Assembly (NCBI GenBank): GCA_977017645.1
Contig: OZ360225.1
Coordinates: forward strand, 115,692,001 to 115,756,000
Origin: Torpedo marmorata
Lineage: Eukaryota
Direction: 5' to 3'
DNA: 64,000 nucleotides
Made by a program: the position numbers and the translations under genes. How positions within the stretch are numbered: position 1 is the stretch's first letter; the number at the start of each line of letters is the position of its first letter. The notes beneath the pieces were generated by a model. It did not search any database. It saw only the letters and a list, made by a program, of their open reading frames with translations, and was not told the DNA's origin. Positions 10,028-61,592 of this stretch are shown here, one piece after another.

Positions 10028-10250
10028 CACAAAAATGCTGGAGAAACTCGGCAAGTCACGCAGCGTTCTTTATGTCGCAAAGCTAAAGATACATAACCAA
10101 CGTTTCGGGCCTGAGACCTTCATCAAGGTTTCAAAACGTTGGTTATGTATCATTATCTTTGCGACATAAAGAACGCTGCATGACTTGTCGCGTTTCTCCA
10201 GCATTTTTGTGTAAACTACAATCACAGCGTCTGCAGATTTTCTTGTTAAA
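10028..10250. mobile_element. Penelope-derived palindromic short element with a hammerhead-like core in the loop
   Basis: 78-bp inverted arms 10028-10105 / 10134-10211 (5 mismatches); minus strand reads TTGATGAAGGTCTCAGGCCCGAAAC. Confidence 0.75.
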
Positions 10251-10524
10251 CTCTTTCTTTGGTTTATTACATAGTATTGACCAAACTTAATGATTAACAT
10301 TTTATTGTCCAAACAATATATTGAATTGGAATTATCTGTATCTGCAGTAAATATTAATGTAAAATATCAATTTTACCACTCAGTATTCAAAGCCTAAATT
10401 GCTGAGAATATAAATGATTCAGTAAGCATTTTCTGCAGTTTTAGCCTCATGACGATCATGTGTAGAAAATGAGTACCTCAAAAGCAATTGCAATCCATCA
10501 GTGAAGCAACTTCACAGTTGTCAC

Positions 10525-10759
10525 TGATGAGCCCATCAATAACTCCAAAAAGACTAGAAGTTATACAAGGATTGAAAGGCTTTTATTAGCAAAAGAATGG
10601 AGCTGCATTCGTGCTGATGATCTGTCCCGGACTGGGGGAGGAGCCGTGGCACAATGGCCTTTATTCAAGGGGGTTTGTGGGAGGAGCCACCGGGACAGTC
10701 AGCAGGGCATGTCCAGACCTATCACCTAGCCCACAATGCATATACAGTGGTTTACCACA
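10525..10759 (-). repeat. 3' LTR of the Gypsy element
   Basis: 235 bp, 5 substitutions relative to 14774-15008; PPT adjacent at 10760-10774. Confidence 0.97.
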
Positions 10760-10832
10760 TTCACCCCTCCTTTTAAAAGAGTCCAGCGGGGTGAAGTGTA
10801 TAATAACAATTACATTAACATTAACATTAACA

Positions 10833-13800
10833 TTACAGATCAAGTCGATCAGGCGGTCGAGTCTGCCGTTGTGATCGGCGCAGTACTTGTGGTGATGGGG
10901 CAGGTGGCGGAGCTACCTCCTGCCTGATCTGGGGTACTGCAGGTGGCGGAGCTGCTTCCTGCCTGATCTGGGGTTCTGCCACGTCTGGTGATCGCGAAAA
11001 TGCTGGTGAGTGTAGTGTCGTGCTGGAATTGAGTGGTGCCTCTTGTGTTTCCTCAATGGTAGGCAAGGGGGTAACCGTAACAAGGGGGTGTTCGAGGGCA
11101 GGTTCCAGTGCTCCTGCGGGCGCCAGGTCCTGGATGGAGACCGTGTCTTCCCGCTCATCAGGAAAAACCACGTAGGCGTACTGGGGGTTTGCATGTGATA
11201 ATTGGACCCTCTCGACCATTGGGGCGTATTTATTGCTCCTGACATGTTTGCGGAGCAGCACTGGCCCTGGGGACGTCAGCCATGCTGGTAGGGTTGTCCC
11301 GGTGGTCGACTTCCTAGGGAAAGAAAAGAGTCTCTCATGAGGTGTAGCATTGGTGGATGTACATAGAAGGGATCGGATAGAGTGGAGTGCCTCGGGAAGG
11401 ACTTCTTGCCAGCGGGAGACTGGTAATCCCTTAGACCTGAGGGCTAAGAGTGTGGCCTTCCAGACTGTGGCGTTCTCCCTTTCTACTTGTCCGTTACCCC
11501 GTGGATTATAGCTCGTGGTCCTGCTAGTGGCGATACCCTTGGCCAGCAGATATTGTCGCAGCTCGTCACTCATAAATGAGGACCCCCTGTCGCTATGGAT
11601 ATAGCAGGGGAATCCAAACAACGTGAAGAGTTTGTGGAAAGCCTTTATGACTGAGGTGGCCGAGGTATCAGGGCAGGGAATGGCGAAAGGGAACTGCGAG
11701 TACTCATCAATAACGTTGAGGAAGTACACGTTGCGGTCGGTGGAGGGGAGGGGGCCCTTAAAGTCGACACTGAGTCGCTCAAAAGGGCGGGTTGCCTTTA
11801 TTAACTGTGCCCTGTCAGGGCGGTAGAAGTGCGGTTTGCACTCTGCGCAGACTTGGCAGCTACTGGTCATCATCCTGACCTCTTCCAGGGAGTACAGTAG
11901 ATTACGGGCTTTCACAAAGTGAAAAAGCCTGGTGACTCCGGGGTGGCAGAGGTCACAGTGGAGGGCATATAACCGGTCGATCTGTGCGCTAGCGCATGTC
12001 CCCCGGGATAGAGCATCGGAGGGCTCATTGAGCTTCCCGGGCCGGTACATTATATCATAGTTATAGGTGGAGAGTTCGATTCTCCACCTCAGGATTTTAT
12101 CATTTTTGATTTTACCCCGCTGCTGGTTGCTGAATATGAATGCGACTGAGCGTTGGTCAGTCAGCAGGGTAAACCTTTTCCCGGCGAGATAGTGCCTCCA
12201 GTGCCTGATAGCTTCCACTATGGCTTGGGCCTCTTTCTCCACCGCTGAGTGCCGAATTTCTGGGCCTTGAAGGGTACGGGAGAAGAACGCCACCGGTCTT
12301 CCCGCCTGGTTGAGGGTAGCAGCCAGTGCGAAGTCGGACGCGTCACTCTCTACTTGAAAGGGAGTGGACTCGTCCACCGCATGCATTGCTGCTCTGGCAA
12401 TGTCCCCTTTTATGAGGCTGAAAGCCTCACGTGCCTCCGTTGCAAGGGGAAAAGTGGTGGACTTGACTAGGGGGCGGGCCTTGTCTGCATAATTAGGGAC
12501 CCATTGAGCATAGTACGAAAAGAAGCCCAAGCACCTTTTGAGGGCTTTGAGGGTGTGGGGAAGCGGTAATTCCAACAGGGGGCGCATGCGGTCGGGGTCG
12601 GGGCCGATGACCCCGTTCTCCACAACACACCCCAGGATAGCGAGTCGGGTGGTTCCGAACACGCACTTGTCCTTGTTATAAGTTAGATTGAGCGCTTTGG
12701 CCGCCTGGAGGAACCTCCGAAGGTTGTTGTCGTGGTCCTGGCGGTCGTGACCGCAGATGGTGATATTATCTAAGTACGGGAAAGTGGCCTTTAAATTGCA
12801 TTGGTCCACCATCCTGTCCATCTCCCTCTGGAAGACGGATACCCCATTTGTGACCCCAAAGGGGACGCGCAGGAAATGATAGAGTCTGCCGTCCGCCTCG
12901 AAGGCGGTGTAAGCGCGGTCCTCCCTGCGAATGGGGAGCTGGTGGTAGGCAGATTTGAGGTCTATGGTGGAGAAAAGCTTATATTGGGCTATCTGATTTA
13001 CCATATCTGCAATGCGTGGTAGGGGGTACGCGTCAAGCTGCGTGAACCTATTGATGGTCTGACTATAATCTACCACCATCCTGTTTTTGTTCCCGTTCTT
13101 GACGACAACCACCTGGGCCCTCCAGGGACTTGTGCTCGCCTCGATGATCCCTTCCCCAAGTAATCGCCTCACCTCTGACTTAATGAATGCCCTGTCCCCT
13201 GTGCTATATCTCCTGCTTTTGGTCGCCACAGGTTTACAATCAGGGGTCAGGTTGGCGAATAGTGATGGGGGCGAGATCTTGAGGGTGAATAGATCACAAG
13301 TAGTATGGGGTGTGTTTTTAAGGAATTGGTGATTACCGACAGTAATCGGTGGGAGGGGCCCGTCATATTCCATAGTAACACTTTGGAGGTGACTCTGGAA
13401 GTCGAGTCCTAGTAGTACAGGTGCACACAGTCGGGGCATGACCAATAGCGTGAAGTCCCGGTATTCCGTGCCCTGTACCACGAGCGTCGCTACACAACTC
13501 CCCCAGATGTCTGTTGTGTGCGACCCGGAAGCCATGGCAACCCTCTGGCTTACCGGCTGTGTCGTGAGACCACATCGCTGTACCGTGTCAGGGTGGATGA
13601 AGCTTTCTGTGCTGCCTGTGTCGAACAGGCAGTTTGTCCTGTGTCCCTCGACCAGAATGTCCATCATTGACCTCGAAAGTTGATGGGGTGCACTCTGGTC
13701 GAGTGTCACTGACGCCAACGTTGGGTTGCTGTCGTGCTCCGACGTCGCGATGGAGTGCCTGCTGTCCCGGGATTGCGGCACCCTGTGTCGGCTCGCCGGC

Positions 13801-14750
13801 GTGGAACAAAATGGCCGCTCCCATGATTCGCACGTGTTGGCGGCGGGTAGGTAAGATGGCGGTGCCGGAAGTGACAAAACCCAAGATGGCTGCTCCCATC
13901 CCTCGCACGTGTTGGCCGCGGTGGCGGGTAGGTAGGATGGTGGCGCCGGAAGTGACGACACACAAGATGGCAGCCCCCGAGTCTCGCACGTGGCGCTGCT
14001 CGAACCCGCTCGCGGCTTTGATCGGCAGACCTTAGCGAAGTGGCCTTTCTTTCCGCAGCTGGAGCAGGTCGCTTCGCGAGCCGGGCAACGTTTTCGGGGG
14101 TGCTTCCCAAGCCCGCAGAAATAGCATTTCTTGGGCTCGCGGCTGATGGTGGCAGTGGTCGATTCACTAGCATGGTGGGGGGTCGGCGGCATCCACGGAG
14201 CCTGCTGGAGATCGCGCGCTTGAATAGCATCCGAGTTCTGTAGCGCGGCCTCCAGCGTGTCGGCCAGTTCGATCGCGGAATGGAAAGTGAGATCAGCTTG
14301 TTCCAGCAGCCGCTGGCGCACATACACTGACCTGATCCCTGTGACAAAAGCGTCTCTTCCTAGGAGCTCAGCGTCCTGTTCAGCCGTCAGTCCCCGGCAG
14401 TCGCACGCCCGCACGAGTGTTTGTATGGCCCGTACGAACTCCGCGTTCGACTCCCCGGGCCGCTGCTGCCGCGTCGCTAGCCTGTGCCTCGCGTATACGG
14501 AATTCACAGGCCGTATGTACTGTCTTTTGAGGGTATTCATCGCCTCCTCATAAGTCTGCAGATCGCGGATCATCGAGTAAACTCGTGGGCTTACCCTAGA
14601 GAGGAGGACCTTGCGTTTTTCAGCGTCTTCTTGCACTTTGATCTCCTCTAGGAACGATTCGAAGCAGACTAGCCAGAGTTCGAAGGCATTGCCGGCGTCC
14701 GGTGCTTGTGGGTCGATGTCCAGTTTGTCTGGCCTCAAGATGTTCTCCAT
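10833..14750 (-). CDS. Gag-Pol polyprotein, 1305 aa, single frame (Gag with zinc knuckles, PR, RT, RNase H, IN)
   Basis: CYFCG..H....CP / CSSCGKKGHFAKVC; LFDTGS; IDLKSAYHQ, PFG, YLDN; ESDAS..EKEA..TDQ..DALS; H....H..CQVC; SVDFKG, HSDRG, GQVER; C-terminal RRSxRxxRPPxRL. Confidence 0.97.
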   Translation of the reverse strand: MENILRPDKLDIDPQAPDAGNAFELWLVCFESFLEEIKVQEDAEKRKVLLSRVSPRVYSMIRDLQTYEEAMNTLKRQYIRPVNSVYARHRLATRQQRPGESNAEFVRAIQTLVRACDCRGLTAEQDAELLGRDAFVTGIRSVYVRQRLLEQADLTFHSAIELADTLEAALQNSDAIQARDLQQAPWMPPTPHHASESTTATISREPKKCYFCGLGKHPRKRCPAREATCSSCGKKGHFAKVCRSKPRAGSSSATCETRGLPSCVSSLPAPPSYLPATAANTCEGWEQPSWVLSLPAPPSYLPAANTCESWERPFCSTPASRHRVPQSRDSRHSIATSEHDSNPTLASVTLDQSAPHQLSRSMMDILVEGHRTNCLFDTGSTESFIHPDTVQRCGLTTQPVSQRVAMASGSHTTDIWGSCVATLVVQGTEYRDFTLLVMPRLCAPVLLGLDFQSHLQSVTMEYDGPLPPITVGNHQFLKNTPHTTCDLFTLKISPPSLFANLTPDCKPVATKSRRYSTGDRAFIKSEVRRLLGEGIIEASTSPWRAQVVVVKNGNKNRMVVDYSQTINRFTQLDAYPLPRIADMVNQIAQYKLFSTIDLKSAYHQLPIRREDRAYTAFEADGRLYHFLRVPFGVTNGVSVFQREMDRMVDQCNLKATFPYLDNITICGHDRQDHDNNLRRFLQAAKALNLTYNKDKCVFGTTRLAILGCVVENGVIGPDPDRMRPLLELPLPHTLKALKRCLGFFSYYAQWVPNYADKARPLVKSTTFPLATEAREAFSLIKGDIARAAMHAVDESTPFQVESDASDFALAATLNQAGRPVAFFSRTLQGPEIRHSAVEKEAQAIVEAIRHWRHYLAGKRFTLLTDQRSVAFIFSNQQRGKIKNDKILRWRIELSTYNYDIMYRPGKLNEPSDALSRGTCASAQIDRLYALHCDLCHPGVTRLFHFVKARNLLYSLEEVRMMTSSCQVCAECKPHFYRPDRAQLIKATRPFERLSVDFKGPLPSTDRNVYFLNVIDEYSQFPFAIPCPDTSATSVIKAFHKLFTLFGFPCYIHSDRGSSFMSDELRQYLLAKGIATSRTTSYNPRGNGQVERENATVWKATLLALRSKGLPVSRWQEVLPEALHSIRSLLCTSTNATPHERLFSFPRKSTTGTTLPAWLTSPGPVLLRKHVRSNKYAPMVERVQLSHANPQYAYVVFPDEREDTVSIQDLAPAGALEPALEHPLVTVTPLPTIEETQEAPLNSSTTLHSPAFSRSPDVAEPQIRQEAAPPPAVPQIRQEVAPPPAPSPQVLRRSQRQTRPPDRLDL

Positions 14751-14773
14751 GTTTACAGTTTTGCTAATAAAAT

Positions 14774-15008
14774 TGATGAGCCCATCAATAACTCCAAAAA
14801 GACTAGAAGTTACACAAGAACTGAAAGGCTTTTATTAGCAAAAGAATGGAGCTGCATTCGTGCTGATGATCTGTCCCGGACTGGGGGAGGAGCCGTGGCA
14901 CAATGGCCTTTATTCAAGGGGGTTTGTGGGAGGAGCCACCGGGACAGTCAGCAGGGCATGTCCAGACCTATCGCCTAGCCCACAATACATATACAGTGGT
15001 TTACCACA
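14774..15008 (-). repeat. 5' LTR of the Gypsy element
   Basis: Sense strand TGTGGTAAACC...CTCATCA with a TATA-like GAATAAAG and a downstream AATAAA. Confidence 0.97.
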
Positions 15009-15299
15009 GTCACATCATTAGCTATTTGAGGACTTGATCAGTGACTGAATGTGATAGATAATTATGTTCAAAGAGAGGAAATGTAGGCAATTAGTTTACA
15101 AAATTTCATCAGTTCTTGTAGGGAAAACCATTCAGAGATAACGGATCAAATGTCGCTACTAGTCCTTTTGGGACTGAAGTCTGCTATTCCCATGATAGGG
15201 ACATCAAAAATCCCAAGCTACAACTGTGATACTGCGTAAAAAGCATCCAAGTAAAACAACTGTCTTGCTGAGACTACCCTTTGAAAAACCCACAATGAA

Positions 15300-21143: not shown

Positions 21144-21206
21144 ATTTAGAGGATAATGAATCTGTGGAATTCTCAAACACTGAAGAGTTGCTGAATATAT
21201 TTAAGA

Positions 21207-22516
21207 GTGAGGCCCAAGAAGAGCAGTGTGAGCTGCCTCAACGAATATCGCCCAGTAGCACTAACTTCTACTGTGATGAAATGCTTTGAGAGGCTGGTCA
21301 TGGCCAGAATTAACACGTACCTAAGCAAAGGTCTGGGCCCACTGCAATTCGCCTATCGTCACAATCGCTCCACAGCAGACGCAATATCGCTGGCTCTCCA
21401 CTCAGCACTGGATCACCTCGAAAACAGCAACTCATACATACGGCTGCTCTTCATTGACTACAGCTCAGCCTTCAACACCATTATTCCCTCAGTGCTGGTC
21501 AAGAAGCTACAAACTCTAGGCCTCTGCACCCCCCTCTGCAACTGGATCCTTGACTTTCTCATCGGAAGACCACAGTCAGTACGAATTAGAAACAACGTCT
21601 CCTCCTCACTGATTATCAACACAGGCGCACCCCAAGGATGCGTGCTTAGCCCACTGCTCTACTCATTATACACCCATGACTCTGTGGCCAGGCACAATTC
21701 CAATGCTATCTACAAATTTGCCGATGACACCACAGTTGTCGGCAGAATCACAAATTGCAATGAGGAAGCATACAGGAGGGAGATAGATCAGCTCGTTGAG
21801 TGGTGTCAAGCCAACAAACTTGCGTTCAACGTCAGCAAAACCAAGGAGATGATTATGGACTTCAGGAGGAAGTCAGGGGAACAAGACCCAGTCCTCATCA
21901 AGGGCTCAGTAGTGCAGAGGGTCAAGAACTTCAAATTCCTGGGTGTTATCATCCCGAGGATCTGTCCTGGAGCATCCATGTCAGCGGCTATATTTTGTGA
22001 GGTGTTTTGGTAGATTCGGTATGATACCGAAGACTCTCGAAAACTTCTACAGGTGTACCATGGAGAGCATTCTGGCTGGTTGCATCACTGTCTGGTATGG
22101 AGGCGCCAACTCTCAGGACAAGAAAAAACTCCAGAGGGTTGTTAACTTGGCCTGCGACATTACAGACACCAGAATTCACTCCATCGAGGACATCTACAAG
22201 AGGCGGTGTATTAAAAAAGCAGCCTCTATCCTCAAAGACTCACACCACCCAGGCCATACCCTCTTCACTCTACTACCATCGGGAAAAAGGTACAGGAGCC
22301 TAAAGACGAGCACTCAACGGCACAAGGACAACTTCTTCCCCACTGCCATCAGATTCCTGAATAATCAATGAACCAAAGACACTGCCTTACTTTTTGTGCA
22401 CTAATTTTAAAATTTATTGTTGTAAGGTGGTTTATATGAATGTTTGCACTGTGATTCTGCCGCAAAGCACAGAATTTTGTGACTTGTTCATAACAATAAA
22501 TTCTGATTCTGATTCT
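21207..22516 (+). mobile_element. 5'-truncated Rex1/Babar LINE
   Basis: [29 protein letters not shown]; tail AATAAA(TTCTGA)n. Confidence 0.93.
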
Positions 22517-22635: not shown

Positions 22636-24577
22636 AATGGGTCCCTAATTACACGGACAATGCTCGCCCCCTAGTCAAGTCCACCACTTTTCCTCTCTCA
22701 GCTGAGACCCGTGCAGCCTTCAGCCTCATCAAAGAGGACATTGCCAGAGCAGCAATGCACGGGGTGGACGAGTCCATTCCCTTCCAAGTAGAGAGCGACG
22801 CGTCCGACTTCGCACCGGCTGCTACCCTCAACCAGGCGGGAAGACCGGTGGCATTCTTCTCCCGTACCCTTCAAGGCCCAAAAATTCGGCACTCAGCGGT
22901 GGAGAAAGAGGCCCAGGCCATAGTGGAAGCTATCAGACACTGGAGGCACTATCTTGCCGGCAAAAGGTTTACCCTGCTGACTGACCAGCGCTCAGTCGCA
23001 TTTATGTTCAGCAATCAGCAGCGGGGTAAAATCAAAAATGATAAAATTCTGAGGTGGAGAATCGAACTCTCCACCTACAACTATGACATCATGTACCAGC
23101 CTGGGAAGCTCTGATGCCCTATCCTGGCGGACGTGCGCCAGCACGCAGATCGACCGGTTATACGCCCTCCACTGAGACCTTTGCCACCCCAGGATCACCC
23201 GGCTTTTCCACTTTGTAAAAGCCCGTAACCTGCCGTACTCACTTGAGGAGGGCAGGACGATGACCGGGGACTGCCAAGTCTGCGCGGAGTGCAAACAGCA
23301 TTTCTACCGACCCAAAAAGGCGCAGCTGATCAAGGCTTCCCTCCCCTTTGAGCGACCGATCGCAATGTGTACTTTCTTAACGTCATTGACGAGTACTCGC
23401 GGTTCCCTTTCGCCATTCCCTGCCCCGATACCACGACCACCTCGGTCATAAAAGCCCTACGCAAACTCTTCACGTTGTTTGGATACCCCTACTATATTCA
23501 TAGTGACTGAGGGTCCTCTTTTATGAGCGACGAGCTGCGCCAATACCTGATGGCCAGGGGTATCGTGACTAGCAGGACCACGAGCTATAACCCCCGGGGG
23601 AATGGACAAGTGGAGAGGGAGAACGCCACGGTCTGGAAGGCCACACTCTTAGCCCTCAGGTCTAAAGGACTACCAGTCTCCCGCTGGCAGGAAGTCCTTC
23701 CCGAGGCACTCCACTCCATCCGCTCCCTGCTACGCACATCCACCAATGCCACCCCTCATGAGCAACTCTTTTCCTTCCCCAGGAAGTCGACCACCGGCAC
23801 TACCCTACCAGCATGGCTGACGTCCTCAGGGCCAGTGCTGCTCCAGAAACATGTGAGGAGCAATAAATATGCCCCGATGGTTGAGAGGGTTCACCTACTA
23901 CACGCGAACCCCCAGTACGCCTACGTGGTTTTTCCTGATTGGCGGGAAGACACGGTCTCCATCCGGGACATGGCATCCGCAGGAGCACTGGGGCCTGCCC
24001 CCGAACACTCCATGGTTACTGTCACCCCCGCACCGACTGCTAGATACACACAGGAGACAACACGTAATCCAAACCTGACACAGACACCAAACGAGACCCC
24101 CGTACCGGCGGCGGCATACCCACACGAAGTCTTGCCGACGCCAGACGTGCTGCTACCTCCAACCAGGCAGGAGGCAGCACAAGCACCGCCGCCTGCCCCA
24201 TCACCACAAGTACTGCACCGATCACAGCGGCGGACTCGACCGCCTGATAGTCTCGACCTGTAAATATACTCATTTGTACATTTTCTTTTGTAAATATGGT
24301 TACACCCTTCACCCTGCGGGATTCTTTTAAAAGGAGGGGTGAATGTGGTAAACCACTATGTATAGTTTGTGGCTGGGTGAGATGTCTGGACATGCCCTCT
24401 GCTGACTGTTCCTGTGGCTCCTCCCACAGACCCCCTGAATAAAGGTGATTGTGCCACTGCTCCTCCCCCAGTCCAGGACAGATAACCAACATGGATGTGT
24501 CTCCATTCTATTGCTAATAAAAGCCTTTCAGTTCAAGTACAACTTCTAGTCTTCTGAAGTTATTGATGGGCTCATCA
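22636..24577 (+). mobile_element. 5'-truncated Gypsy of a sister subfamily (RNase H, IN, PPT, 3' LTR 24344-24577)
   Basis: ORFs 22584-23114 and 23523-24263 align to the 1305-aa ORF; same PPT; 234-bp LTR TGTGG...CATCA. Confidence 0.95.
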
Positions 24578-25997
24578 AAAGTGCAAAAGTAAGAGTCCTT
24601 GAATGAGTCTGATTGAGTTTGTTGTTGAGGAGTCTGATGGTGGAGGGGTAGCAGCTGTTCCTGATCCTGATGGTACGAATGTTGTAGCCCCTATACCTCT
24701 TTCCTGATGGTAGCAGCGAGAACAGAGCATGTGCTGGGTGATGTGGATCCTTGATGATTGCTGCTGCTCTCCGACGGCAGCGTTCCCTGTAGATGTTCTC
24801 GATGATGGGAAGGGTTTTGCCTGTGATGTCCTGGGCTGTGTACACTACCTGTTGCAAGGCTTTCTGCTCAGGGGTATTGGTGTCCCCATACCAGACAGTG
24901 ATGCAGCCTGTCAGCACACTTTCCACCACACATCTTTAGAAATTTGCCAGGATTTCCGATGTCATACCAAAGCTCCGCAAACTCCTGAGGAAGTAGGGGC
25001 GCTGATGTGCTTTCTTCACGATACCATTAGTGTGTTAGGTCCAGGAAAGATCCTCCAAGATAGTGACTCCCAAGAACTTAAATTTTCTCACCCTCTCCAC
25101 CTCTGATCCCCCAATGATCACTAGATCGTACACCTCTAGTTTTCCCTTCCTGAAGTCAATAATCATCTCCTTGGTTATGGTGACATTGAGTGTAAAGTGG
25201 TTGTTGGTGCACCATTTGGCCGTTTTCAATCTCTCTCCTGAATACTGACTCATTGCCCCTTTTTATACAAACCACTACTATGCTTTCGTCAGTGAATTTG
25301 TAAATGTTATTGTCATACCGAGCCACACAGTCATAGGTGTACAGCGAGTTGAGCAGGGGGCTAAGAACACAGCCCTATGGTGCTCCCATACTAATGGAGA
25401 TTGTGGAGGAGATGTTCTTACCAATCCTCACTGATTGTGGTCTGGAGGGGAGGAAATCCATGATCCAATTACACAGTGGGGTGTTGAGTCCCAGGTCTTG
25501 GAGTTTGCTGATCAGTTTTGAGGGGATGATGGTGTTGAATGCTGAACTTTAGTCGATAAAGAGCATCCTGATGTATGCATCTTTGCTGTCCAGGTGTTCC
25601 AGGGCTATGTGTAGAGCCAGTGAGATAGCATCTACTGCAGACCCGTTGTTGCAGTAGGCAAATTGGTATGGGTCCATGCCGCCGCTCAGACCGGAGCTGA
25701 TATGCTTCAACACCAGCCTTTCATAACACTTCATCACTGTTGATGTGAGTGCCACTGGTCGATAGTCATTTAGGCAGGTTACCACACTCTGCTTGGGCAC
25801 CGGTATGTTTGAGGCCTGTTTGAAACAGGTGGGAACCACACCCTGCCAGAGTGAGATGTTGAAGGTATCCGTGAATACATTGGCAGTTGGTCAGCAGATA
25901 TTTTTAATACTCAGCCGAGTACTCCATCCGGGCTGGATGCTTTCCTCAGATTCACTCTCCTGAAGGCAGCCTTCACGTCATCCTCGGATACGGACAT
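24578..25997 (-). mobile_element. Rex1/Babar LINE, truncated and decayed
   Basis: Minus-strand ORF fragments with [25 protein letters not shown]. Confidence 0.9.
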
Positions 25998-40687: not shown

Positions 40688-43600
40688 GAATCAGAATCAG
40701 AATTTATCAGAATCAGAATTAGAATTTATTAACGTGAACAAGTCATGAAATTCGGTGTTTTGTGGCAGCATCATAGTGCAAACATTCATATTATTACCAT
40801 TTTATGACATTACTATAAAAAATATATAAATAAAAGTGCACGAAAAGTAAGTCAGTGTCTTTGGTTCATTGATTATTCAGGAATCTGATGGCAGAGGGGA
40901 AGAAGCTGTTCTGGTCAAGTCAAGTCAAGTCACCTTTATTTGTCGTTCATTACCATATACACAGTAAGACGAGATAGCGTTTCTCCAGGACCATGGGCAG
41001 ATGTACATAAATATCATAATACAATAGAAAAAAAACTATAACATGCTAATACACATATATATCTAGGAATTGAGGAGCCTGATTGCTTGGGGGAAAAAAC
41101 TGTTGCACAGTCTGGACGCACGAGCCCGAGTGCTTCGGTACCTCCTTCCAGATGGCAAAGGGGAAAACAGTTTACCAAAGGGGTGTGAGAAGTCCTTCAC
41201 AATGTTTTTAGCCTTCCTCATGCATCGTGTGTTGTAGATGTCTGTCATGGTGGGGAGAGAGACTCCAATAATTTTCTCCACTGACCTCACTATCCTCTGC
41301 AGGGTCTTTCGGTCCGAGATGGTACAGTTACCAAACCAAGCGGTGATGCAATTGCTCAGAATACTCTCAATACATCCCCTGTAGAATGTAGTAAGGATAG
41401 GGGCTGGGAGATGAACTTTCCTCAGCCTTCGCAGGAAGTAAAGACGCTGCTGAGCTTTCTTAACTATGGATCGACTTTAGGCTCCTGTACCTTTTTCCCG
41501 ATGGTAGCAAAGTGAAGAGGGCATAGCCTGGGTGGTGGGGGTCTTTGAGGACAGAGGCTGCTTTTTTAAGACACCATCTCGTGTAGATGTCCTCGATGCA
41601 GTGAAGTCTGGTGCCTGTGATGTCACAGGCCGAGTTAACAACCCTCTGGAGTTTATTCTTGTCCTGAGAGTTGGCACCTCCATACCAGGCAGTAATGCAA
41701 CCAGCCAGAATGCTCTCCACGGTACACCCGTAGAAGGTTAAGAGAGTCTTCGATGACATACCGAATCTCCTCAGACACCTCCAAAGTATAGCCGCTTGCG
41801 AGCCTTCTTTGTGATTGCATCAACGTGGAGGCTCCAGGACAGATCCTCGGAGATGTTGACACCCAGGAATTTGAAGTTCTTGACCCTCTCCACTACTGAG
41901 CCCTCGATGAGGACTGGGTCGTGTTCCCCTGACTTCCTCCTGAAGTCCACAACCATCTCTTTGGTTTTGCTGACGTTGAGCTCAAGGTTGTTGTCATTAC
42001 ACCATTCAACGAGCTGATCTATCTCCCTCCTGTACGCTTCCTCATTGCCGTTTGTGATTCTGCCGACAACTGTGGTGTCATCGGCAAACTTGTAGATGGC
42101 ATTGGAATTGTGCCTGGCCACACAGTCATGGGTGTATAACGAGTAGAGCAGTGGACTAAGTACGCAACCTTGGGGTGTGCCTGTGTTGATAATCAGTGAG
42201 GAGGAGACGTTGTTTCCAATTCGTACTGACTGTGGTCTTCCGATGAGAAAGTCAAGGATCCAGTTGCAGATTGGGGTACAGAGTCCTAGAGTTTGAAGCT
42301 TCTTGACCAGCACCGAGGGAATAATAGTATTGAAGGCTGAGCTGTAGTCGATGAAGAGCAGCCGTATGTATGAATTGCTGTTTTCAAGGTGATCCAGAGA
42401 TGAAGGGAGAGCCAGCGATATTGCATCTTCTGTGGAGCGATTGTGACGATAGTCGAATTGCAGTGGGTCCAGATCTTTGCTTTGGTACGTGTTAATTCTG
42501 GCCATGACCAGCCTCTCAAAGCATTTCATCACAGTAGAAGTTAGTGCTACTGGGCGGTAGTCATTGAGGCAGCTCACACTACTCTTCTTGGGTACTTGGA
42601 TGATTGATGCCCTTTTGAAGCAGGTGGGAACCTCTGACTGCCGCAATGAGAGGTTGAAAATGTCCATGAATACTCCGGCTAGTTGGTTGGCACAGATTTT
42701 CAGTACCCTGCCAGGTACGCCGACAGGGCCTGACGCCTTGCGAGGGTTCACCCTCTTGAATGATGTTCTGACGTTGCCGTCAGAGACAGATATCACAGGG
42801 TCCTCAGCCTTTTCAGGGATTCTAGTAGGCACTGTTTAGTTCTTCTTCTCAAAGCGGGCATAGAAGGTTTTCAGCTCATTGGGTAGTGAAGCATCACAGC
42901 CGTTTATAGTGTTCGCCCTCGCTTTGTAGGCTGTAATGGCCTGCACTCCCTGCCATAGCTGGCGTGCATCTGTCTCTCTCTTTATCTTCCTCTGGAGTTG
43001 CCACTTTGCTTCAGAGATGGCCTTCCGCAAGTCGTGCCTAGACTTCTTGTAAAGATCCAGGTCCCCGGCCTTAAACACCCTTGTTCTCGCCCTCAGCAGG
43101 TTGCGAATTTTCTGATTCATCCAGGGCTTCTGGTTGGGGAACACCCGGTATTTGCGCGTGGGCACACACTCATCCACGCAGGTCTTGATGAAGTCAGTGA
43201 CACCTGTTGCATATTCATTCAGGTCTATGGATGAGTTCTTGAATATGTTCCAGTCCACCGATTCAAAGCAGTCCTGCAGACGCTCCTCCGCCCCCCTCGA
43301 CCATACTTTCGCCGACTTCACCACTGGTGCTGTGGTCTTCAGTCTCTGCTTGTACGCTGGGAGTAGAAGTACAGCCAGGTGATCAGACTTGCCAAAGTGC
43401 GGTCGTGGTATGGCTCGGTATGCGTTCTTCACGGTGGTGTGTCAGTGGTCGAGTGTGTTGGTTCCCCTGGTCTTGCATGTGATGTGTTGGTGGTAGTTTG
43501 TCAGTGACTTCTTCAGATTGGCCTGATTGAAGTCTCCCACGATGATCAGGAAGGCATCAGGATGTGCTGTCTCATGGCTGTTTATCACAGTGCTCAGTCC

Positions 43601-44158
43601 CTCCAGTGCCAGCCTGATGTTAGCCTGGGGCGGAATGTACACTGCGACCAGGATGATGGCGGTGAACTCCCTCGGCAGGTAGAATGGGCGATACTTGATC
43701 GCCAGATGTTCCAGGTCGGGGGAGCAGGACGGGGACATGACCATCACTTCTGTGCACCACGATGAATTGATGATGGCACAAACGCTGCCTCCCCTGGTTT
43801 TTCCAGATGCCGGTGTTCGGTCAGCGTGATGGAGGGTGTAGCCCTTGGGCTGCAGCGCCGTGTCTGGAATGTCCGCATTTAGCCACGTTTCTGTAAAGCA
43901 CATCACGCAGCACTCCCTGATGACTCTCTGATGTTGAAGTCTGGCTTGGAGTTCATCAAGTTTGTTCTCCAAGGATTGTACGTTGGCCAGGAGGATGGTA
44001 GGGAGCGGAAGCTTCAGGTCCCCGTGTCTCAGTTTGACCTGTAGCCCCCCTCTGCGTCCACGTGGTTGGGTCTACTTTACCTGGCCCGTGGGTCCGCTGC
44101 TGGTAGTTCCCTCTGTGTTTAAATGGTCCGTGCGCTGTCCCTTTAAATCCTCCGTGAT
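40688..44158 (-). mobile_element. Near-full-length Rex1/Babar LINE (APE + RT), itself split at 40912/41475
   Basis: APE (CFTETWL, VYIPP, GDFN, LDH, SDH) at 43370-43972; RT at 41771-42832; (TTCTGA)n tail at 40688. Confidence 0.94.
40913..41474 (-). mobile_element. Rex1/Babar 3' fragment of a third subfamily
   Basis: LPSGRRYRS...NSFFPQAIRLLN; (CTTGA)n tail. Confidence 0.88.
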
Positions 44159-47100
44159 GTTTAGGAACAGCTGCTATCCCTCCACCATCAGACTCCTCAA
44201 CAACAAACTCAATCAGTGACTTATTTAAGGACTCTTACTTTTGCACTTTATTGATTTTTTCTCTGTATTGCACAGTTATTTTGTTTACGTTTCTTTATTT
44301 GTTTACATGTGTGAGTTGAGTCAGTTTTTGTTTTACACTACCAATAAGTGGTAATTCTGCCTCGCCCACAGGAGAATTAATCTCAGGGTTGTATGTGATG
44401 TCATGTATGTACTCTGACAATAAATTTGAAATCTGAATCTGATCATAGGAAAAGAAATATTGTGTCAGAATCACCCATTAACTTCTGGAAATGCTGCTTC
44501 AACGTAAAAGTATTTGAATTAAGCTGCAATGGTGGAATCTTCAGCAACTGGCCCTAGTTTTCATGTGATGAGTGAGGAAGGCAATTAATCTCCAATACAA
44601 AGAGAAGGGTTCTGGAATCTTCTTTGAGGAACTTGTACTGTGGTATCTCAGGGCCAAAATAACTGGCTTCTGAGGACCAAAATCATTGCCTTTTTCTTGC
44701 TAATTATGTCTTTAGTCACTGAGGCTGCAGGGCCTGAAATACCATTTCTCTAGTGGCTGAGGTGGATTGTCGCAATTCTTAACAATTCTGCCCCAATATC
44801 TGAATCAAAGCTACAACCAAGTGACTTTGACCGAACCTGGTCCAAATCGGTGACTGATGATATACAATGATGCTTTGTTCCTTGATTGTGAAAATACTGA
44901 CTACAACGTTGATAGGACAGAGAGAATGCAGATGACCACTGACGGGTAAATCAAGATCAAGAGGGCAAGGATACAAAATTAAACCTAAAATAATTGGGAT
45001 TGAAAATACCAATGCAAAATTGCAGAATAAAAACGGTGGCTGAAGAAAATTAAACAACTAGATTTGGTAAGACCCCAGGCACATGGAATCATAGTCACTG
45101 TTAATGCACGGGATAACACCTACTTGGATCGGATGGGCTGAATGGCTCTTTTCCATGTTGTGATTTTAGTGCAATTCTTTCTTCATTCATCTGTTTAAAA
45201 AACGATTTTCTGGTGCTATAACTTCAAGGTTACCGTAGAAAATATTGAAGCACTGACATTCATCTTTATTTTTGGGTCAGTTAAACGCTTCCCCTTCCAA
45301 TTCTGAGGGTTCTGAGGTGGACACTCACAGGCGGAGATTAATGGGGCGGATGGGTTGGTTTACTGCAGTAATCACAGACATTTTAATCATCAAAAAACTC
45401 GCAAGACTGAAAACCATTGCAATTATCCACGATGGTAGCGTCAAATACAAACAGTTATTTAAAGATTATGGGGTGAGATTGTCAGAATTTGGAATTAGAT
45501 TGCTTGAGTTATTTTTAAATGAACCTGAAACATCTTTTTGCCAGTATCCAGTTATCCCCGCACCACACACGCGCACACACACACAGTGTACGGCATCAGT
45601 CGACAGTTCTCATCTTCCAGTTTAGAGCCATTCAGAATTTGAATTGAACAGGACCGACCAAAGTTGTCAAAAGTGCGAATAGAATCGCGTTCGGTTCGAT
45701 TAAATCACTCGATTCCGCCATCTAGCGCACCACATTAATATTTCTAATGAAAACGAAATACTGGAAATAGAAGGGAAATGTATCTTAAAGGGTTTTGTTT
45801 TGTGAACCTTGCGTGGTATTGACAGTTTACTTACATCAAAAACATGGTGATTAATTTGCATGCTTGTTATGCCTTTGAACATGTTATTCTCTGTGCATCT
45901 ATTCATCTAAAACAGGAGATTCGGGTTCATGTGCCATTCCGTTTTCAATACAGAAGCAAACAAGAAAGACTGCAGATGCTGGAAAACGGGAACAACATAC
46001 AAAATGCTTGAAACATCGACCATTCTTCTTCTCCCACTGATGCTGCTCGACCCGCCGAGTTCCTGCAGCAGGTTGTTAGCGTCAAATTCCAGCATCTGCA
46101 GTCTCCGGTTCTTCTTGACTTTTTTTGTTTCTGTTTACAACAACACATCTGAAAGGATAGTATTTGAAAAGTAACGATCTTAATTGTAAAATCTAATCTT
46201 ATGAATGTTTTGAAAATTTAAGGATGTTCAAGAAAAACACTGAAAAAATCGGAGAACCCGATGTCCATCGTGCCCGCCGGCTCTTGCAAAGTGCTTTCCA
46301 ACTGCGCTCACTCTCCTTCTCGCAGTAACATTTCTCCATTTCAGGCAGATCACCTAATTTCTTTATGATTATTGCTTTTATTCTCCGAATCACTCGGCAT
46401 AAACTTGGTGCATTACACATGTTTCCTTCCTTTTGTTCTTTTGCCAAATACTTTATTTGGTTTTCCAACTGAACACATTAGTAGCATGAACTCTTTGCTT
46501 AGCGAAAGATAACATTAATTTTCGTAAATTACTTAGTACAAATCAAGACATTATAAATTTCATAAAAATACTGGCATTTTCCAGTTAATATGCGGCAAGG
46601 ATTAAGCCAAAACCGTGATCAGATTTTGAGTGAACGTTCTGGGTAGCAAGGATGTGTTCGCGATGTTCATGGTATTTGTAAAGAAGTGTCCGCTTTGAGT
46701 GATGAACGAACAAAGAGGAATTAGAAGGACTCAGCGGGTCAGGGCAGCATCCACGTTTCGGGTGGGAACTCTTTTGGTTTTGAGTGATAGTTGTGTAGAT
46801 GTGTGGCTCGACACAGTTTCTCAGATTGTTTACCTTTTCCCTTTCCTGATTCTGGTGGGGGTCGAAGTATTTGATGAATGGGCAGACAAGCAGTTCCCAC
46901 ACTTTATTCCATTTGGTTGCCGCCTGCAGCATACAGTCAACACGACAGCCCGCTCTCCTTGGCCTCTCCTGCCCTCCCATCTCCACTGCTGCCTTGATTT
47001 ATTGGAGTTGTCCAGCTGACTGGAAGCCAGCCCCCTCCCCCTCACCTCTTAAACATTCAGCTGAAACTCTCGCCGAAATCCTAGGAAAACAATGCTCCCT

Positions 47101-48624: not shown

Positions 48625-48765
48625 ATACACAAACGTGTTGGAGAAACTCAGCAGGTCACGCAGCTGTAAAGGGTAGTAAAATTACCAACGTTTCGGGCCT
48701 GGCTGAGTTTCTCCAACACGTTTGTGTATCGCACTCGACCTCAGCATCTGCTATCTCTCTTGTTT
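48625..48765. mobile_element. Penelope-derived palindromic short element
   Basis: Perfect 28-bp arms at 48625-48652 / 48702-48729. Confidence 0.72.
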
Positions 48766-55600: not shown

Positions 55601-55878
55601 TGCCATTTAATAAGACCATAGCTGATCTGGCCATGGACTCAGCTCCACCTACTCCATTTCTATAAGGCTACTAAATCATACCCCTTTGTACTGATTTGTG
55701 CCATAAGTTCATTGACTTTGTTTTGAATACTCAGGGCCTTCAGATAAACTGCCCTTACACTCATTGCCCTTTTACAATCCAATAATCTATGTTCCTTTTA
55801 CATTTGACATTTCTGTATCTTTTTCTTTTTTAACATTTGCTTTTGTCTCTGCATTGCTTCCCTCTGTCTTTCTGCATA

Positions 55879-56584
55879 CCGTATATTTCGGCGTATAAGT
55901 CGACCCTTGAAACCCTCAAAAATGTCTCAAAAAACGGGGGTCGACTTATACACCGGATATACTTTTGAGACCTTAAAATCAGCTCAAAATCCAGTTCACG
56001 CCGATTCGGCGTATAAGTCGACCCATGAAAAACCGATTCGGCGTATAGGTCGACGCTGGAAGCACCTCCCCACCGCCGGCGCCGCCGCTCCCCGACACCT
56101 CCCCAATGCCGGGCACCGCCATAAACCACCCAGACATTCTACAATTGTAGAGTCCGAGGTCCCCGCTCCTGCCCGGGAGAAAGACGTCCCCGCTCCTGCT
56201 CGGGAGAACGAGCTCCCCGCTACTGCTCGGGAGAACGAGCTCCCCGCTCCTGCTCGGGAGAACGAGCTCCCCGCTCCTGCTCGGGAGAAAGACGTCGCCG
56301 CACCTGCTCGGGAGAAAGACGTCGCCACACCTGCATCTTCCCGGCCAGAAGCAAAGGTTTTTTTTACTGTTTTTTTTTTAACTTACCGGTACTTGCTTAA
56401 TTTACAGCTTTGTTACTTGGCGATTGGGGTGTTGTAACAAATTTTGGGTTGTTGCTGGGAGGCCCGGACAGCCTGAAAATTGGGGGTCGACTTATACGCC
56501 GGATATACCATAAAACCATTAAAATGAGGCTGAAAAAGGGGGGTCGACTTATCTGCCGGTCGACTTATACGCCGAAATATACGG
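55879..56584. mobile_element. MITE derived from the pogo element at 59725
   Basis: Identical 27-bp TIR CCGTATATTTCGGCGTATAAGTCGACC, TA TSD, shared subterminal repeats. Confidence 0.95.
56159..56335 (+). repeat. 27-bp GC-rich minisatellite, about 6.5 units, inside the MITE
   Basis: Unit (G/C)TCCCCGCTCCTGCTCGGGAGAA(C/A)GA(G/C). Confidence 0.92.
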
Positions 56585-57257
56585 TAGATTTCCATCCCCC
56601 TGCTATATTAGTTTAAACCCTCTCCAACAACACTAACAGTTTCTGTAGTTCAATCTCATTAATATAAAATGTAATTACTCAGTCTTTCCATTTTAATTTT
56701 CATCTCACCCTGTTTTTTGGTAAATGCTTTAAATTTTTATGTTTCAGTTGTAGTCATCTGTTTAGTGAGTGTAACATCCACAAATAATTACGGTAATAAA
56801 AACTGGGAATTTTCCTGCTGCTGAATTTAAAACAATATCATCTGTTCTTTCTTGTTTGAAACAGAAACTGGAAAACATGTCACCACTGTCTTCAGGAAAA
56901 AAAAACATTCACAATTGAAACTATTACACTAATGCAGAATATACACAAAGTTTTGACTTTGCAAATTATTGGTAACGTTTCTTAACTTTCTGACCATCCA
57001 TTTGTTTCCTGAAACTTGGAATTGGATTGGAAAGTTGTGTATTTTTGATGGTCTGTCTTAAATTCCATCCCATCTGGATTTTGCACTGATAGGTGTCCTT
57101 TTCCAACCTGGATTTTTGGGATATCAGCTTAATTAATTAATTTTATTTGTTGTTTACAGCCCTGATTTTTTAAAATATTAATGATGAAAGATATTAATGC
57201 TGACATGTGCATAGAGGTTGGTTTTTTTTTTTACCATTATCATGTTCAGTATTTAAA

Positions 57258-58500
57258 TGATAGGTGGAGAAGGGAGGGAGGGGACAGCAGTGATCAGGGG
57301 GAGGAAGGATGGCTGGGTGGGTGGAGGGGGAAGGGAGGGGGAGAACTGGAAAAACGGGAAAGGGGGAGGGGAAAAAAAGGCGAGCAGGTTAGCAGAAAGC
57401 AGAGAAGTCAATGTTAATGCCATCTGGCTGGAGAGTGCCCTGACGGAAAATAAGGTGTTGTTCCTCCAATCTACGCCTGCCTGTTTGTGGGCTTTGTGGA
57501 GCAATCCATGCTACAAGCCTACACAGGCAAGACCCCTCAACTCTTCCTCCAGTATATCGACGACTACATCGGGACTTCGTCATGCACCCGCGATGAGTTT
57601 GTCAACTTTATCCACTTCGCGGCCAACTTCCACCCCGATCTCAAACTCACCTGGTCCATCTCTGACAACACTCTCCCCTTCCTGGATCTCTCTGTCTTCA
57701 TCTCAGGAGACAAGCTTTCCACCGACATTTACTACAAACCCTCCAACTCACACAACTACCTTGACTACACTTCCTCACACTCTGTCCCCTGCAAGGATTC
57801 CATCTCCTTCTCTCAATTTCTCCGTCTCCGCCGCATCTGTTCCCAAGATGAGGCCTTCCAGTCCAGATCTTCCAAAATGTCTGCCTTCTTCCACAAACGT
57901 GGCTTCCCCTTCACCACCATCGACTCAGCCCTCACCCGCATCTCCTCCATTTACCGCTCATCTGCCCTGGCCCCCTCTGCCCCCAGACGCAACACACATA
58001 GAATCCCCCTCATCCTCACCTACCACCCCTCCAGCCTCCGCATCCAACACATTATCCGCCGGAATTTCCGGCACTTACTGCAGGATCCCACTACCAGACA
58101 CATTTTCCCTTCTCCTCCCCTCTCAGCCTTCCACAGGGACTGCTCCCTCCGTGATTCCCTCGTGCACTCATCCCTCCCTACCCATCGCACCCCCGGCACC
58201 TTCCCCTGTGGCCACAGGAGGTGCAACACTTGCGCCCACATCTCCTCCCTCACCACGGTTCAGGGCCCCAAACAGGCCTTTCAAGTGAAGCAACACTTCA
58301 CTTGTATATCCACAGGACTGATTTACTGCATCCGGTGCTCCCTTTGTGGCCTTCTCTACATCGGAGAGACCGGTCGCAGATTGGGAGATCGCTTTGCTGA
58401 GCACCTCCTCTCTGTCCGCAACAACAGCGACCTCCCAGTAGCCAACCATTTCAATTCTGAGTCACACTCCCACACTCACATGTCTGTCCATGGCCTTATG
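57258..58500 (+). mobile_element. Penelope-like element: 5'-truncated RT/GIY-YIG body (from about 57470) preceded by an inverted 3' end
   Basis: YIDD, LPFLD, IYYKP, LIYCIRC..C.LLYIGET.R.L..RF.EH; minus strand at 57389-57475 gives RRLEEQHLIFR.GTLQPDGIN. Confidence 0.93.
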
Positions 58501-59724
58501 CAACTACTGAAGTAGATTAGCTGATCATTCTAATGGTACTATTTGTGGAATTTGACTTCTGCATTTCCTTCATTATATAGTGACTCTTGTAAAGTACTTT
58601 GTGACTTCCTAAGAGAGACGTAAATGAATGCAATTTTTCACCAATATCTTCCCCTTCATAGTTTTAGTTACCTTGATTGAATTAAACCTCCTCCCTCTGT
58701 CCCTGCTTAACTTAAAGACCATGCTTTATCTTGACACGCTGTCTGCATTGCCACAGGAAATCGTATTTATGTGTCTTGAATATACTATTACAAGTAATTG
58801 TTTATATACCATTAATAGTTGGAATTTTGATCAAGTTTTACGTTCAATCTGATTTTATTTATGCCTGTTTGGTATTTGCTCCATTGTTTATTTTCAGCTT
58901 AAATATTTAAAATTTAAATTTATTTCTTAACAGTGTTTGCACATTTATGTAAGCATCTGGTCACATCATGTCTTTTTTCTTCTGTTTTGGATGCACTACA
59001 CGCTTGTGAAACCTTGTCCATGTCCAGTTGACTCAAGTTTTCCATGACAAATCCATTTATTTGGAACATTTGAGCTTATTTTATGGTTAGAACTTTTATA
59101 TGATTTAACCACAAGCCAATCTATGTATAAAGCCTTCTGTTTGAACAAATAATTTACAAAATGTTGTTAGTTCTATGCCATATCTCCAAAGTCCTCATTC
59201 CCCTGATCTTTCAAAACTTTATCTACCTTTACTTTAGATATTTATAATGAGCTACCCTCCACAACTCTCTGTGCCAGACAATTCCAGAGATTCACCACTC
59301 TTTGTGAGAAGAAATTTCCAAGTACCTCATATGTAGATGACTAGCTTTTCATCTTGAAACCATTCCAACCCCCCCCACCCACCCCCTGTTCAAGATTTTC
59401 TCTCTCTCATGAAAACATCTCATCTACCCTTAAGACCTTGCATGTTTCAATAAGATCACCCCTCATTCTTCAAAACTTCAAAGAATATAGACCTCACCGT
59501 TTAACCTCTGTTGATAGAACAATCCTTTCATCCCAGGAACTAGCCTGGTGAATCTCTTTTGGTCTACCTCCAATACTGCTATATCCTTTTTTAGTTCCTC
59601 AAGTATTTGTGTGTTTCTGCAGTATTCCATATGCAGCTTCACCAAAAATTATAACAAAATGTCCCTATTTTTAAACTCCAAAGCTTTGCAATGAAAGTCA
59701 TTATGCTACTTGCCCTCCTAACTA

Positions 59725-61592
59725 CCGTATATTTCGGCGTATAAGTCGACCCTTGAAACCCTCAAAAATGTCTCAAAAAACGGGGGTCGACTTATACGCC
59801 GGATATACTTTTGAGACCTTAAAATCAGCTCAAAATCCAGTCCACGCCGATTCGGCGTATAAGTCGACCCTTGAAAACACGATTCGGCGTATAAGTCGAC
59901 CCTTGAAAACACAATTCGGCGTATAAGTCGACCCTTGAAAAACCAAAAAAAAACCCGACTGCAACAAATTTTCATTGACATTTTTATTGAAAACAACAAG
60001 ACATTTAGAACCCTTCAAAATCACTTTCGCTATCATCGTCTGAGGCAAAGATCTCGGCAAGCACATCCGGGGTCTCACTGTTTAAACAGTCATCGTACGG
60101 GTCCCAGTCTGTATCTGATGAGGCGGCTTCAGCTTCGTCGTCAGTGTCCCACAATAAATCATCTTCCGTACCATCAATTGCACAAGAGATACCACACTTT
60201 TTAAATGATTTTATTATAGTCTCTACTTTCACTTTGTCCCATGCCTTGAGCACGAAGTCACACAGCACATCAAGCGATGCAGCACGCATTGCCCCGCCTT
60301 TTGTAAATGATTTTTCTGCACTCGACATCCATGTATTCCACTCTTCACGCACGTGGTCTTTGAATGGCTTGTTCAAGCAGACATCGAGAGGTTGCAATAT
60401 AGACGTCAAACCACCTGGGATAACCGCCATGTAAGTATTATATTATGCTAATCTACTTTTAGTGTTCTCAGTTAAGTGGCTACGAAACATATCCCAGACC
60501 AGCAGACTCCGTTCCTTGCGTAAACCGCCTGGCCGCCTGTTCCACACATTGTCTATCCATAGTTTTACACCATTTTCATCCATCCATCCTTTTTCATGAA
60601 AATGTACAAAAATACCTGCTGGGAAATTTATTTTAGGTTTAAGTTTGCGTTTGAAGATTACCATGGGTCTTAACTTTGTCCCGTCGGCCATGCACGATAA
60701 CACCACGGTAAACCTGGTCCTTTCATGTCCTGTACTCCTCGTTTGCACAGTTTTCACACCTTTCCATTCCACTGTTCTATTGCCTATCATGTCAAAATTC
60801 ATGGGGGTTTCGTCCATGTTTCCAATATTTGCCAATGCAAACTTGTGTTTCTGCGGTTACGTATAATAAACTAGTGAAAACTTACAACTTTATGATCAAG
60901 ATCTTTTGGTAGTTTCTGAGCAATTTTAGTTTTTTGTCGTAATACCAGATTTTTCCTGTTCATGAAACGGTTGCACCAGCCTACTGTAGCTTCAAAATCA
61001 TTACTGAGTTCTGGGTGTGACTTTGCCCACTTCAGTGCAAATGTTCTTATTTTATTTTGGGTGATGATGTAGCAATCTTGCCTCTGTTCACGTACCCATG
61101 CTGCAACATGATTTTCCAACTCTGGCCAACGAGTGATTCCTCTTCTCTTCGAACATTGCCTTTTTGGTATTTTTCTTAAAGTATCTTCTTTCTTCCTCCA
61201 ATCTCTTACCAACTTCTCATATATATCAAATTTTCTTGCAGCAGCTCAGTTGTTGGTTTTCTTGGCCATTTCTATAACTTTTAATTTAAAACTCGCCTCA
61301 TACTTTCGTCGTTTCAATTGAGCCTCCATGATAACAATCACCTCCAGCCAACGCCCAGCAGCTCAATCAGCGTGATCGTTGTGGGTCGACCTATACGCCG
61401 GTCAACACCCAGTAGCTCAATCCTCGCGATTTTTGGGGGTTGACTTATACGCCGGTCAATGCGCAACATCTCAGGCATCGCGATTTTTTTGGGATCGACT
61501 TATACACCGGATATACCATAAAACCATTAAAATGAGGCTGAAAAAGGGGGGTCGACTTATCTGCCGGTCGACTTATACGCCGAAATATACGG
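59725..61592 (-). mobile_element. Full-length pogo (POGK/Passer-like) DNA transposon
   Basis: 27-bp TIRs, TA TSD at 59723-59724 and 61593-61594, repeated GTCGACTTATACGCCG subterminal motifs. Confidence 0.96.
60005..61329 (-). pseudogene. pogo transposase (HTH + CENP-B-type HTH + DDD) with stops and frameshifts
   Basis: MEAQLKRRKYEASFKLKV..., WPELE, GWCNRFM, NMDETP, LVWDMF, LQPLDV, acidic tail ending DFEGF. Confidence 0.92.

Follow-up and report, generated by a model that had tools for sequence, protein, structure and literature searches.

How does a retrotransposon start reverse transcription when the site behind its 5' LTR lacks the TGG that a tRNA primer would need? The question is raised by a young Ty3/Gypsy element on the minus strand of the window, that is, the whole 64,000-nt stretch of DNA analysed, which belongs to a 6.2-Gb animal genome. 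The 5' end of this element holds a 14-bp pairing of the PBS, or primer-binding site, with the LTR. The element has the protease-RT-RNase H-integrase order, the TG...CA LTRs, the polypurine tract and the target duplication of Ty3/Gypsy, and its two LTRs are 97.5% identical (Table 1). Ty3 Gag-Pol and RT are the best solved relatives of its protein. The nearest named proteins are from rays and catshark, followed by those from corals, sea cucumber, nematodes and insects (best 120 of 915 matches).

Table 1. Features of the element and of its sister copy, in window positions; LTR nt are counted from the start of the 5' LTR.
Feature	Position	Strand	Remarks
5' LTR	14774..15008	-	235 nt, TG...CA; LTR nt 1 = 15008
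3' LTR	10525..10759	-	235 nt; arm and AATAAA as in 5' LTR; without PBS behind
Target-site duplication GTGAC, upstream copy	15009..15013	-	
Target-site duplication GTGAC, downstream copy	10520..10524	-	
TATA-like GAATAAAG, LTR nt 94-101	14908..14915	-	candidate core promoter (putative function); conserved across 153 LTRs
Initiator-like CCAGTCC	14878..14884	-	A at 14882 = LTR nt 127 = predicted transcription start and primer 5' end
CCATTCT, invariant, second initiator-like motif	14843..14849	-	rival start site; unpaired except last T = first base of arm
14-nt arm, LTR nt 166-179	14830..14843	-	PBS complement; ends in AATAAAA; predicted self-primer 3' end
Predicted cut site A/GCC, between LTR nt 179 and 180	14827..14830	-	putative cleavage
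Spacer A, LTR end to PBS	14773	-	one base
Primer-binding site	14759..14772	-	14 nt, no TGG
Single gag-pol frame	10833..14750	-	1305 aa; two CX2CX4HX4C knuckles, protease, RT (YLDN), RNase H, integrase
Polypurine tract	10760..10774	-	
Sister-subfamily 3' LTR, 5'-truncated copy	24344..24577	+	arm differs at position 2

Other repeats were also observed in the window. A sister-subfamily copy at 22640-24577 (+) runs from the RT end to the 3' LTR; it is 5'-truncated and carries stops and frameshifts. Fragments of non-LTR retrotransposon RT frames are at 21195-22371, 25322-25878 and 41771-44071, with several related copies across the window. The region 55808-59944 has 185-nt direct repeats at a distance of 3846 nt, palindromic units of 32 nt inside it and a 27-nt tandem array, and includes a weak GIY-YIG match (57454-58512, E 1e-4); by these features it seems to be Penelope-like. 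Short elements with inverted arms of 18-28 bp, MITE- or SINE-like, are found at 10028-10211, 45967-46104 and 48625-48729. A weak Pfam CysS_C match (62346-62861 (+), E 4e-5) is possibly an exon of a host cysteinyl-tRNA ligase-like gene.

The PBS and the LTR arm (plus 14759-14772 and plus 14830-14843) form a perfect inverted repeat of 14 bp whose arms are 57 nt apart. The claim of the earlier note, that the PBS has no TGG and is the exact 14-nt complement of its own LTR arm, is confirmed at these positions, and the sister LTR does keep the 12-nt core, at 24511-24522. An inverted repeat alone is ordinary here: 20 perfect ones of at least 12 bp within 200 nt are present in the 64-kb window, and the z-score of the fold is only -2.9 (2/200 shuffles). 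The PBS-arm repeat stands above chance because of its position and covariation, and not on account of the inverted repeat by itself. In the 30 copies nearest to this one, 29 junctions were read; both arms are unchanged in 26 and show one change in three.

The exact 17-nt junction of LTR, A and PBS, a pattern that fixes the first 7 bases of the PBS, occurs at least 9030 times in the genome. In ten arm types, which were hand-picked, all 140 of 140 cells pair with their own PBS by strict Watson-Crick swaps. Five of the 14 pairs change on both sides, with 23 double changes and zero one-sided changes, and the next pairs outside the 14 bp hold in only 1/20. In the sister subfamily, arm position 2 and PBS position 13 change together, the 5' junctions carrying the compensating base; in other subfamilies up to five positions change jointly in arm and PBS. 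A position-ordered sample of 30 junctions from one contig contained 27 scorable ones, of which 18 are perfect, in nine arm types. The remaining nine have 1-3 mismatches: eight differ at one or two positions, and one is an arm/PBS chimera (L253). Where an arm is mismatched, the change mostly affects just one of the two LTRs, which is the expectation for changes that followed insertion. The inter-subfamily chimeras L253, L208 and L213 (arm vs PBS, or LTR vs LTR) point to co-packaging and recombination. One further locus, L073, has a tandem pair of PBS copies ahead of gag.

The pairing is found in other families as well. The foreign set comprised 89 loci from metagenome and MAG contigs whose host is not known, 48 of which matched the Gag N-terminal query; a search of viral contigs returned no related loci. 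L141-L149 are bacterial MAG records containing an animal-type Gypsy element, most likely through host contamination of the bins. An unguided search for the longest inverted repeat ahead of gag gave 11-18 bp in 30/35 loci. In 27 of these 30, the right arm begins exactly one base behind a CA, and in 17 loci the LTR end was fixed independently via the second LTR. For junction scoring 40 loci were used (7 own, 33 foreign), six near-duplicates and six loci without a true gag start being left out. Thirty-eight were scorable, and 31 of them pair over at least 11 nt by a rule written after the data were seen; the controls gave 8/1392 for cross-pairs and 1/7600 for shuffles. Among the foreign junctions, 24 of the 31 scored pair over at least 11 nt, with unrelated letters. 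The misses are either mismatched (L064, L085, L126, L082) or short on upstream sequence (L069, L071, L129), and L120 (17 bp in the unguided search) and L122 were unscored in this test. RCC directly follows the arm in 18/20 representative families. AWTAAA overlaps the arm end in 12 of these 20 and is absent from the other eight, and the AATAAAA end of the arm is invariant across the subfamilies of this genome. Judged from these alignments of arm and PBS, the pairing is clade-wide, across distant families. The earlier note had named covariation as one check on its proposal; arm and PBS covary both in the subfamilies of this genome and in the foreign families.

Further information on priming comes from copies in which synthesis appears to have run on past the PBS. 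Searching for a PBS that is followed by the complement of the bases lying upstream of the arm yielded 63 + 60 overlapping matches, all of which were fetched. They correspond to 76 genomic places with the LTR end, spacer A, the PBS and then the inverted LTR from nt 165 upstream. These run-on copies are aberrant products chosen by pattern, and the native spacer A in all 76 was built into that pattern; a few extend merely 5-12 nt and may be due to chance. A 5-bp target duplication is present in 9 of the 16 run-ons with both ends in view, which means that they were integrated as rearranged cDNA. Fifty of the 76 reach far U3 or the LTR start (nt 1), and five, namely L225, L322, L341, L345 (by flank) and L246 (by alignment), pass through the polypurine tract. 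There is no excess of one-base run-ons (G 8, A 4). The feature is a real one: what the sequence shows is the pairing, its register one base behind the LTR, its covariation and these integrated copies.

Several rearranged copies should be described in addition. L224, L233, L248, L300, L319, L323, L335 and L346 have recurrent small insertions, assigned to minus-strand fold-back via a 5-bp inverted repeat between LTR nt 176-180 and 209-213; both orientations of the loop are seen, and target duplications flank several of the insertions. In L235 and L244 the 3' LTR with polypurine tract is followed by spacer A and the PBS, as if plus-strand synthesis had entered the primer; a tandem array would look no different. 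L228 is an ordinary copy, but the five bases behind its PBS match the LTR upstream of the arm, possibly by partial conversion from a run-on flap. One rearranged left junction is common to L305, L347 and L349-L351, so that one run-on product has apparently been copied or has moved a second time.

The positions at which the run-ons change template are not evenly distributed. Twenty-six run-ons switch template (one place counted twice), and 23 distinct switches lie at or below nt 158; five places that share identical 85-mers and reach the LTR start were merged for these analyses. In 10 of the 23, the interval includes LTR nt 126-128 (permutation p 0.0004-0.0008, also under a null restricted to nt 100-158), and those jumps go to about nine different acceptors. 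When two jumps inside the inverted LTR are set aside, the peak becomes 8/21 (p 0.006, narrow null); two further removals bring it to 6/19 (p 0.004 under the wide null, 0.09 under the narrow null). Only six switches fall in nt 2-125, though about 50 copies cross that stretch. The second C-run, at nt ~87-91, has no switches (10/62 vs 0/48, p 0.005), which speaks against a mere pause at nt 126-128. Nucleotide 127 is the A of CCAGTCC, which we take to fit the initiator consensus, and lies 33 nt behind the TATA-like GAATAAAG; both motifs, like much of the LTR sequence, are conserved across 153 LTRs. The peak at nt 127 was noticed earlier than the motif.

For minus strands leaving the LTR, 9/30 switches include nt 179-181 (expected 2.4, p 0.0003). 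The count drops to 3/18 (p 0.09) without events that could use the 5-bp inverted repeat or PBS homology, and a maximum-over-positions permutation was not significant (9/32; null mean 6.2, max 12). A two-template signature was looked for as mismatches between the left LTR and the run-on, nt 127-179 against nt 1-126, and was seen neither overall (41/1209 vs 58/2060, p 0.40) nor at polymorphic columns (12/228 vs 11/347, p 0.28). The earlier note had suggested that the paired segment lies inside R rather than at the cap, and that a cut could fall just 3' of the arm. The switches at nt 126-128 favour the former indirectly, but the second initiator-like motif 4 nt before the arm does not. The latter is suggestive only: the unfiltered count agrees with it, and the filtered one weakens it.

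These observations can be set against explanations in which the LTR does not provide the primer. If the primer were a host RNA, e.g. a tRNA fragment, the helix would only hide the 5' poly(A) signal or shape the leader. The invariance of AATAAAA in this genome and the AWTAAA at the arm end in 12/20 families fit this idea, and the host tRNA set was sampled only in part. However, the 25 distinct host tRNAs (Lys, Thr, Cys, Arg and Ala only) match the four arm types compared over no more than 5 nt. A complementary host tRNA, which the earlier note had named as a refutation of its own proposal, was not found beyond these matches within this partial sample of five kinds, and a search of Rfam gave no match. 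None of the 38 junctions has the TGG with which a tRNA-type PBS, complementary to a tRNA 3' end, begins. Dozens of PBS sequences are unrelated to each other, and therefore no single host RNA can follow them. Moreover, if the helix were purely structural, G-U pairs should be tolerated and nothing would require a place exactly one base behind the LTR, and 8/20 families are without AWTAAA. A host-RNA primer is already disfavoured, and we consider it very improbable. Alternatively, DNA-level correction of a chromosomal near-palindrome might keep the match without any role in priming; short inverted repeats are known to be made perfect through template switching. Against this, the register is fixed at CA+1 across distant families, the run-ons carry target duplications of their own (9/16), and no other primer site is present in a family with at least 9030 junctions. 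This explanation is hardly credible. The element very probably self-primes: priming without a tRNA, as put forward in the earlier note, is strongly supported by the covariation and by the run-ons from the PBS into the inverted LTR.

As to the primer itself, the sequence evidence suggests that it is probably a 5' fragment of the element's own RNA of about 53 nt, LTR nt 127-179, cut at AAAA/GCC and paired by its last 14 nt only. Transcription would start at the initiator-like A127, and the arm would pair with the PBS. The RNA would then be cut 3' of the arm, probably by the RNase H of the element, by analogy with Tf1. Minus-strand DNA might be made from spacer A to nt 180, followed by a jump to the 3' R. 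Plus-strand synthesis would copy the primer and rewrite the PBS from the arm, which would explain why only Watson-Crick swaps are fixed, without G-U steps. Occasionally the copy might reach the primer 5' end and be kept; it would then jump by microhomology (the switches at nt 126-128), or anneal to the LTR and continue to nt 1. The long-primer model does not explain how a 39-nt overhang would be dealt with in normal second-strand transfer, flap trimming being a guess. A cap-proximal primer would be the simpler explanation for the sharp end of the duplex at 14 bp, and the run-ons to far U3, the LTR start and the polypurine tract are also predicted by plus-strand DNA fold-back.

The predicted fold of the long leader is unremarkable (z -1.5). 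Its CUCCAU/AUGGAG helix includes the start codon and is indistinguishable from coding constraint. As regards a three-duplex 'pretzel' leader as in the Tf1/sushi group, a stem after the arm, where RCC stands in 18/20 families, is found in 12/20, compared with 230/600 shuffled loops, and no covariation was seen by eye in a duplex downstream of the PBS. Contigs of one run (X1, guessed to be RNA) show an about fourfold drop in depth near LTR nt 187-190, where 6/8 listed pieces stop, and those of a second run (X2) show no drop there; both are from one study, as contigs only, and were not used as evidence. No poly(A)-tailed retrocopy was found. Masking of the 5' poly(A) signal by the PBS-arm helix is plausible as a secondary side benefit. 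It is possible because the 5' LTR alone is followed by a PBS. AWTAAA is present in only 12/20 families, and poly(A) masking therefore cannot be the main reason for the pairing.

The chief rival of the long primer is a Tf1-type arrangement with plus-strand fold-back. Here, the start of the RNA would lie at the arm or immediately ahead of it (CCATTCT, A162, or nt 166), the length of the primer would be 14-18 nt, and the run-ons would be plus-strand strong-stop DNA folded back via the PBS-arm match. The sharp 14-bp boundary fits, as does the invariant initiator-like CCATTCT next to the arm, which begins before it and ends on its first base. In addition, most run-ons reach LTR nt 1, and the two-template signature is missing. 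In the Tf1 group the self-primer begins at the start site, according to the available part of 10.1101/2022.12.06.519325. Fold-back, however, predicts switches spread over nt 165-1, not 10/23 at nt 126-128; the element has no TATA-like box about 30 nt before the arm; and the foreign families, with flanks read by eye, have no common initiator there. We regard this arrangement as rather unlikely. The arm might instead come from a 3' R, that of the same RNA or of a co-packaged one, shortened to AAAA by trimming or cutting, with U3 hanging on the 5' side of the primer. Run-ons into U3, five of them through the polypurine tract, would agree with this, but the switches at nt 127 are left unexplained, and cutting at nt 127 would presumably remove the R needed for the first strand transfer; such a primer seems quite improbable.

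Self-priming itself is already known. Tf1, Tf2, Tj1, Tosmo/Tcry and the Tf1/sushi chromoviruses are self-primed Ty3/Gypsy elements, as described in the accessible parts of PMC4600332, PMC5341516 and 10.1101/2022.12.06.519325. The element resembles them, as far as those parts go, in that it has no tRNA site, the PBS behind its 5' LTR complements its own LTR, and its primer is predicted to come from an RNA cut. The available text of PMC11042837 states that Tf1 cDNA keeps a DNA copy of its primer, and that of PMC7472051 that retroviruses copy the primer into the PBS. The Tf1/sushi elements have a chromodomain, whereas the element has two zinc knuckles and none at the integrase C-terminus. The earlier note was right on this point: no Chromo domain is found by Pfam in the 1305-aa frame, and PF00385 is absent from the precomputed domains of the relatives (120 listed of 915). 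In the Tf1/sushi elements, so far as described in the parts available, the primer is the very 5' end of the RNA, whereas a ~39-nt unpaired 5' part is likely here. Here the duplex of 11-18 bp also ends on the poly(A) hexamer, which is not kept in 8/20 families. The element therefore works like Tf1 self-priming and is not a Tf1/sushi member by the chromodomain test.

Two CCHC knuckles in Gag are a hallmark of the Mag clade. The element shares these with Mag, together with short LTRs, a 5-bp target duplication and one or two frames (Table 1 of PMC3286476, seen in part). Mosquito Mag elements differ in their use of tRNA-Ser, -Leu or -Arg, according to the same partial source. The Mag-like label of the earlier note holds for the two CX2CX4HX4C knuckles, on which it rests, and not for the PBS. 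A search with PF24626 gave other Gypsy groups at ~30% identity. Retroviruses occlude their 5' poly(A) signal by base-pairing. The likeness here is an AAUAAA inside a helix at the 5' end only; the difference is that the partner is the PBS, 57 nt downstream, and that the hexamer is missing in 8/20 families.

For plant Tcn1 chromoviruses and TAR (Houba/Osr-1) copia elements, self-priming was predicted from sequence by the same criterion, at least 10 nt starting 0-5 nt behind the 5' LTR and complementary to the LTR (PMC6317226, available part), which shows that it arose more than once. Those are plant lineages, and the available part of PMC6317226 names no animal non-chromovirus Gypsy. Motif look-ups in the supplement files of PMC6238403 and PMC8556966, four files aside, found nothing, and the available parts of PMC3601003, PMC6934838, PMC3587641, PMC2871265 and PMC13524379 do not mention priming in this lineage. 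In a literature search outside Repbase and most subscription papers, self-priming in an animal non-chromovirus Gypsy was not found, and neither was an internally cut primer, Repbase Reports being aside as well. For some insect Gypsy families, self-priming may have been mentioned in work related to Repbase. What is new here is the run-on copies and the predicted long, internally cut primer.

Put together, the data might describe a widespread animal Gypsy lineage without chromodomain and with its own form of self-priming, in which an internal cut releases a long capped leader where the poly(A) hexamer ends, a single helix serves to hide the 5' poly(A) signal as well as to set the primer, and genomic fossils of failed reverse transcription map both primer ends (nt 127 and nt 179/180) with no need of RNA experiments. 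This full picture is tentative, and we give it slightly less than an even chance.

So far, the fission-yeast Tf1 group is the only one in which self-priming has been shown; for a few plant lineages it has been predicted. If the proposal is true, a large animal Gypsy lineage replicating without a tRNA would escape control via tRNA supply or tRNA fragments; annotation tools seeking TGG miss such a lineage. An internal cut and a long unpaired leader would also mean that the primer need not be the first nucleotides of the RNA. The long leader raises the question of what would stop second-strand transfer after 14 nt in the absence of a modified base. Exact, testable positions are supplied by the mis-copied insertions, and the run-on approach could map the primers of other high-copy families from genome sequence alone.
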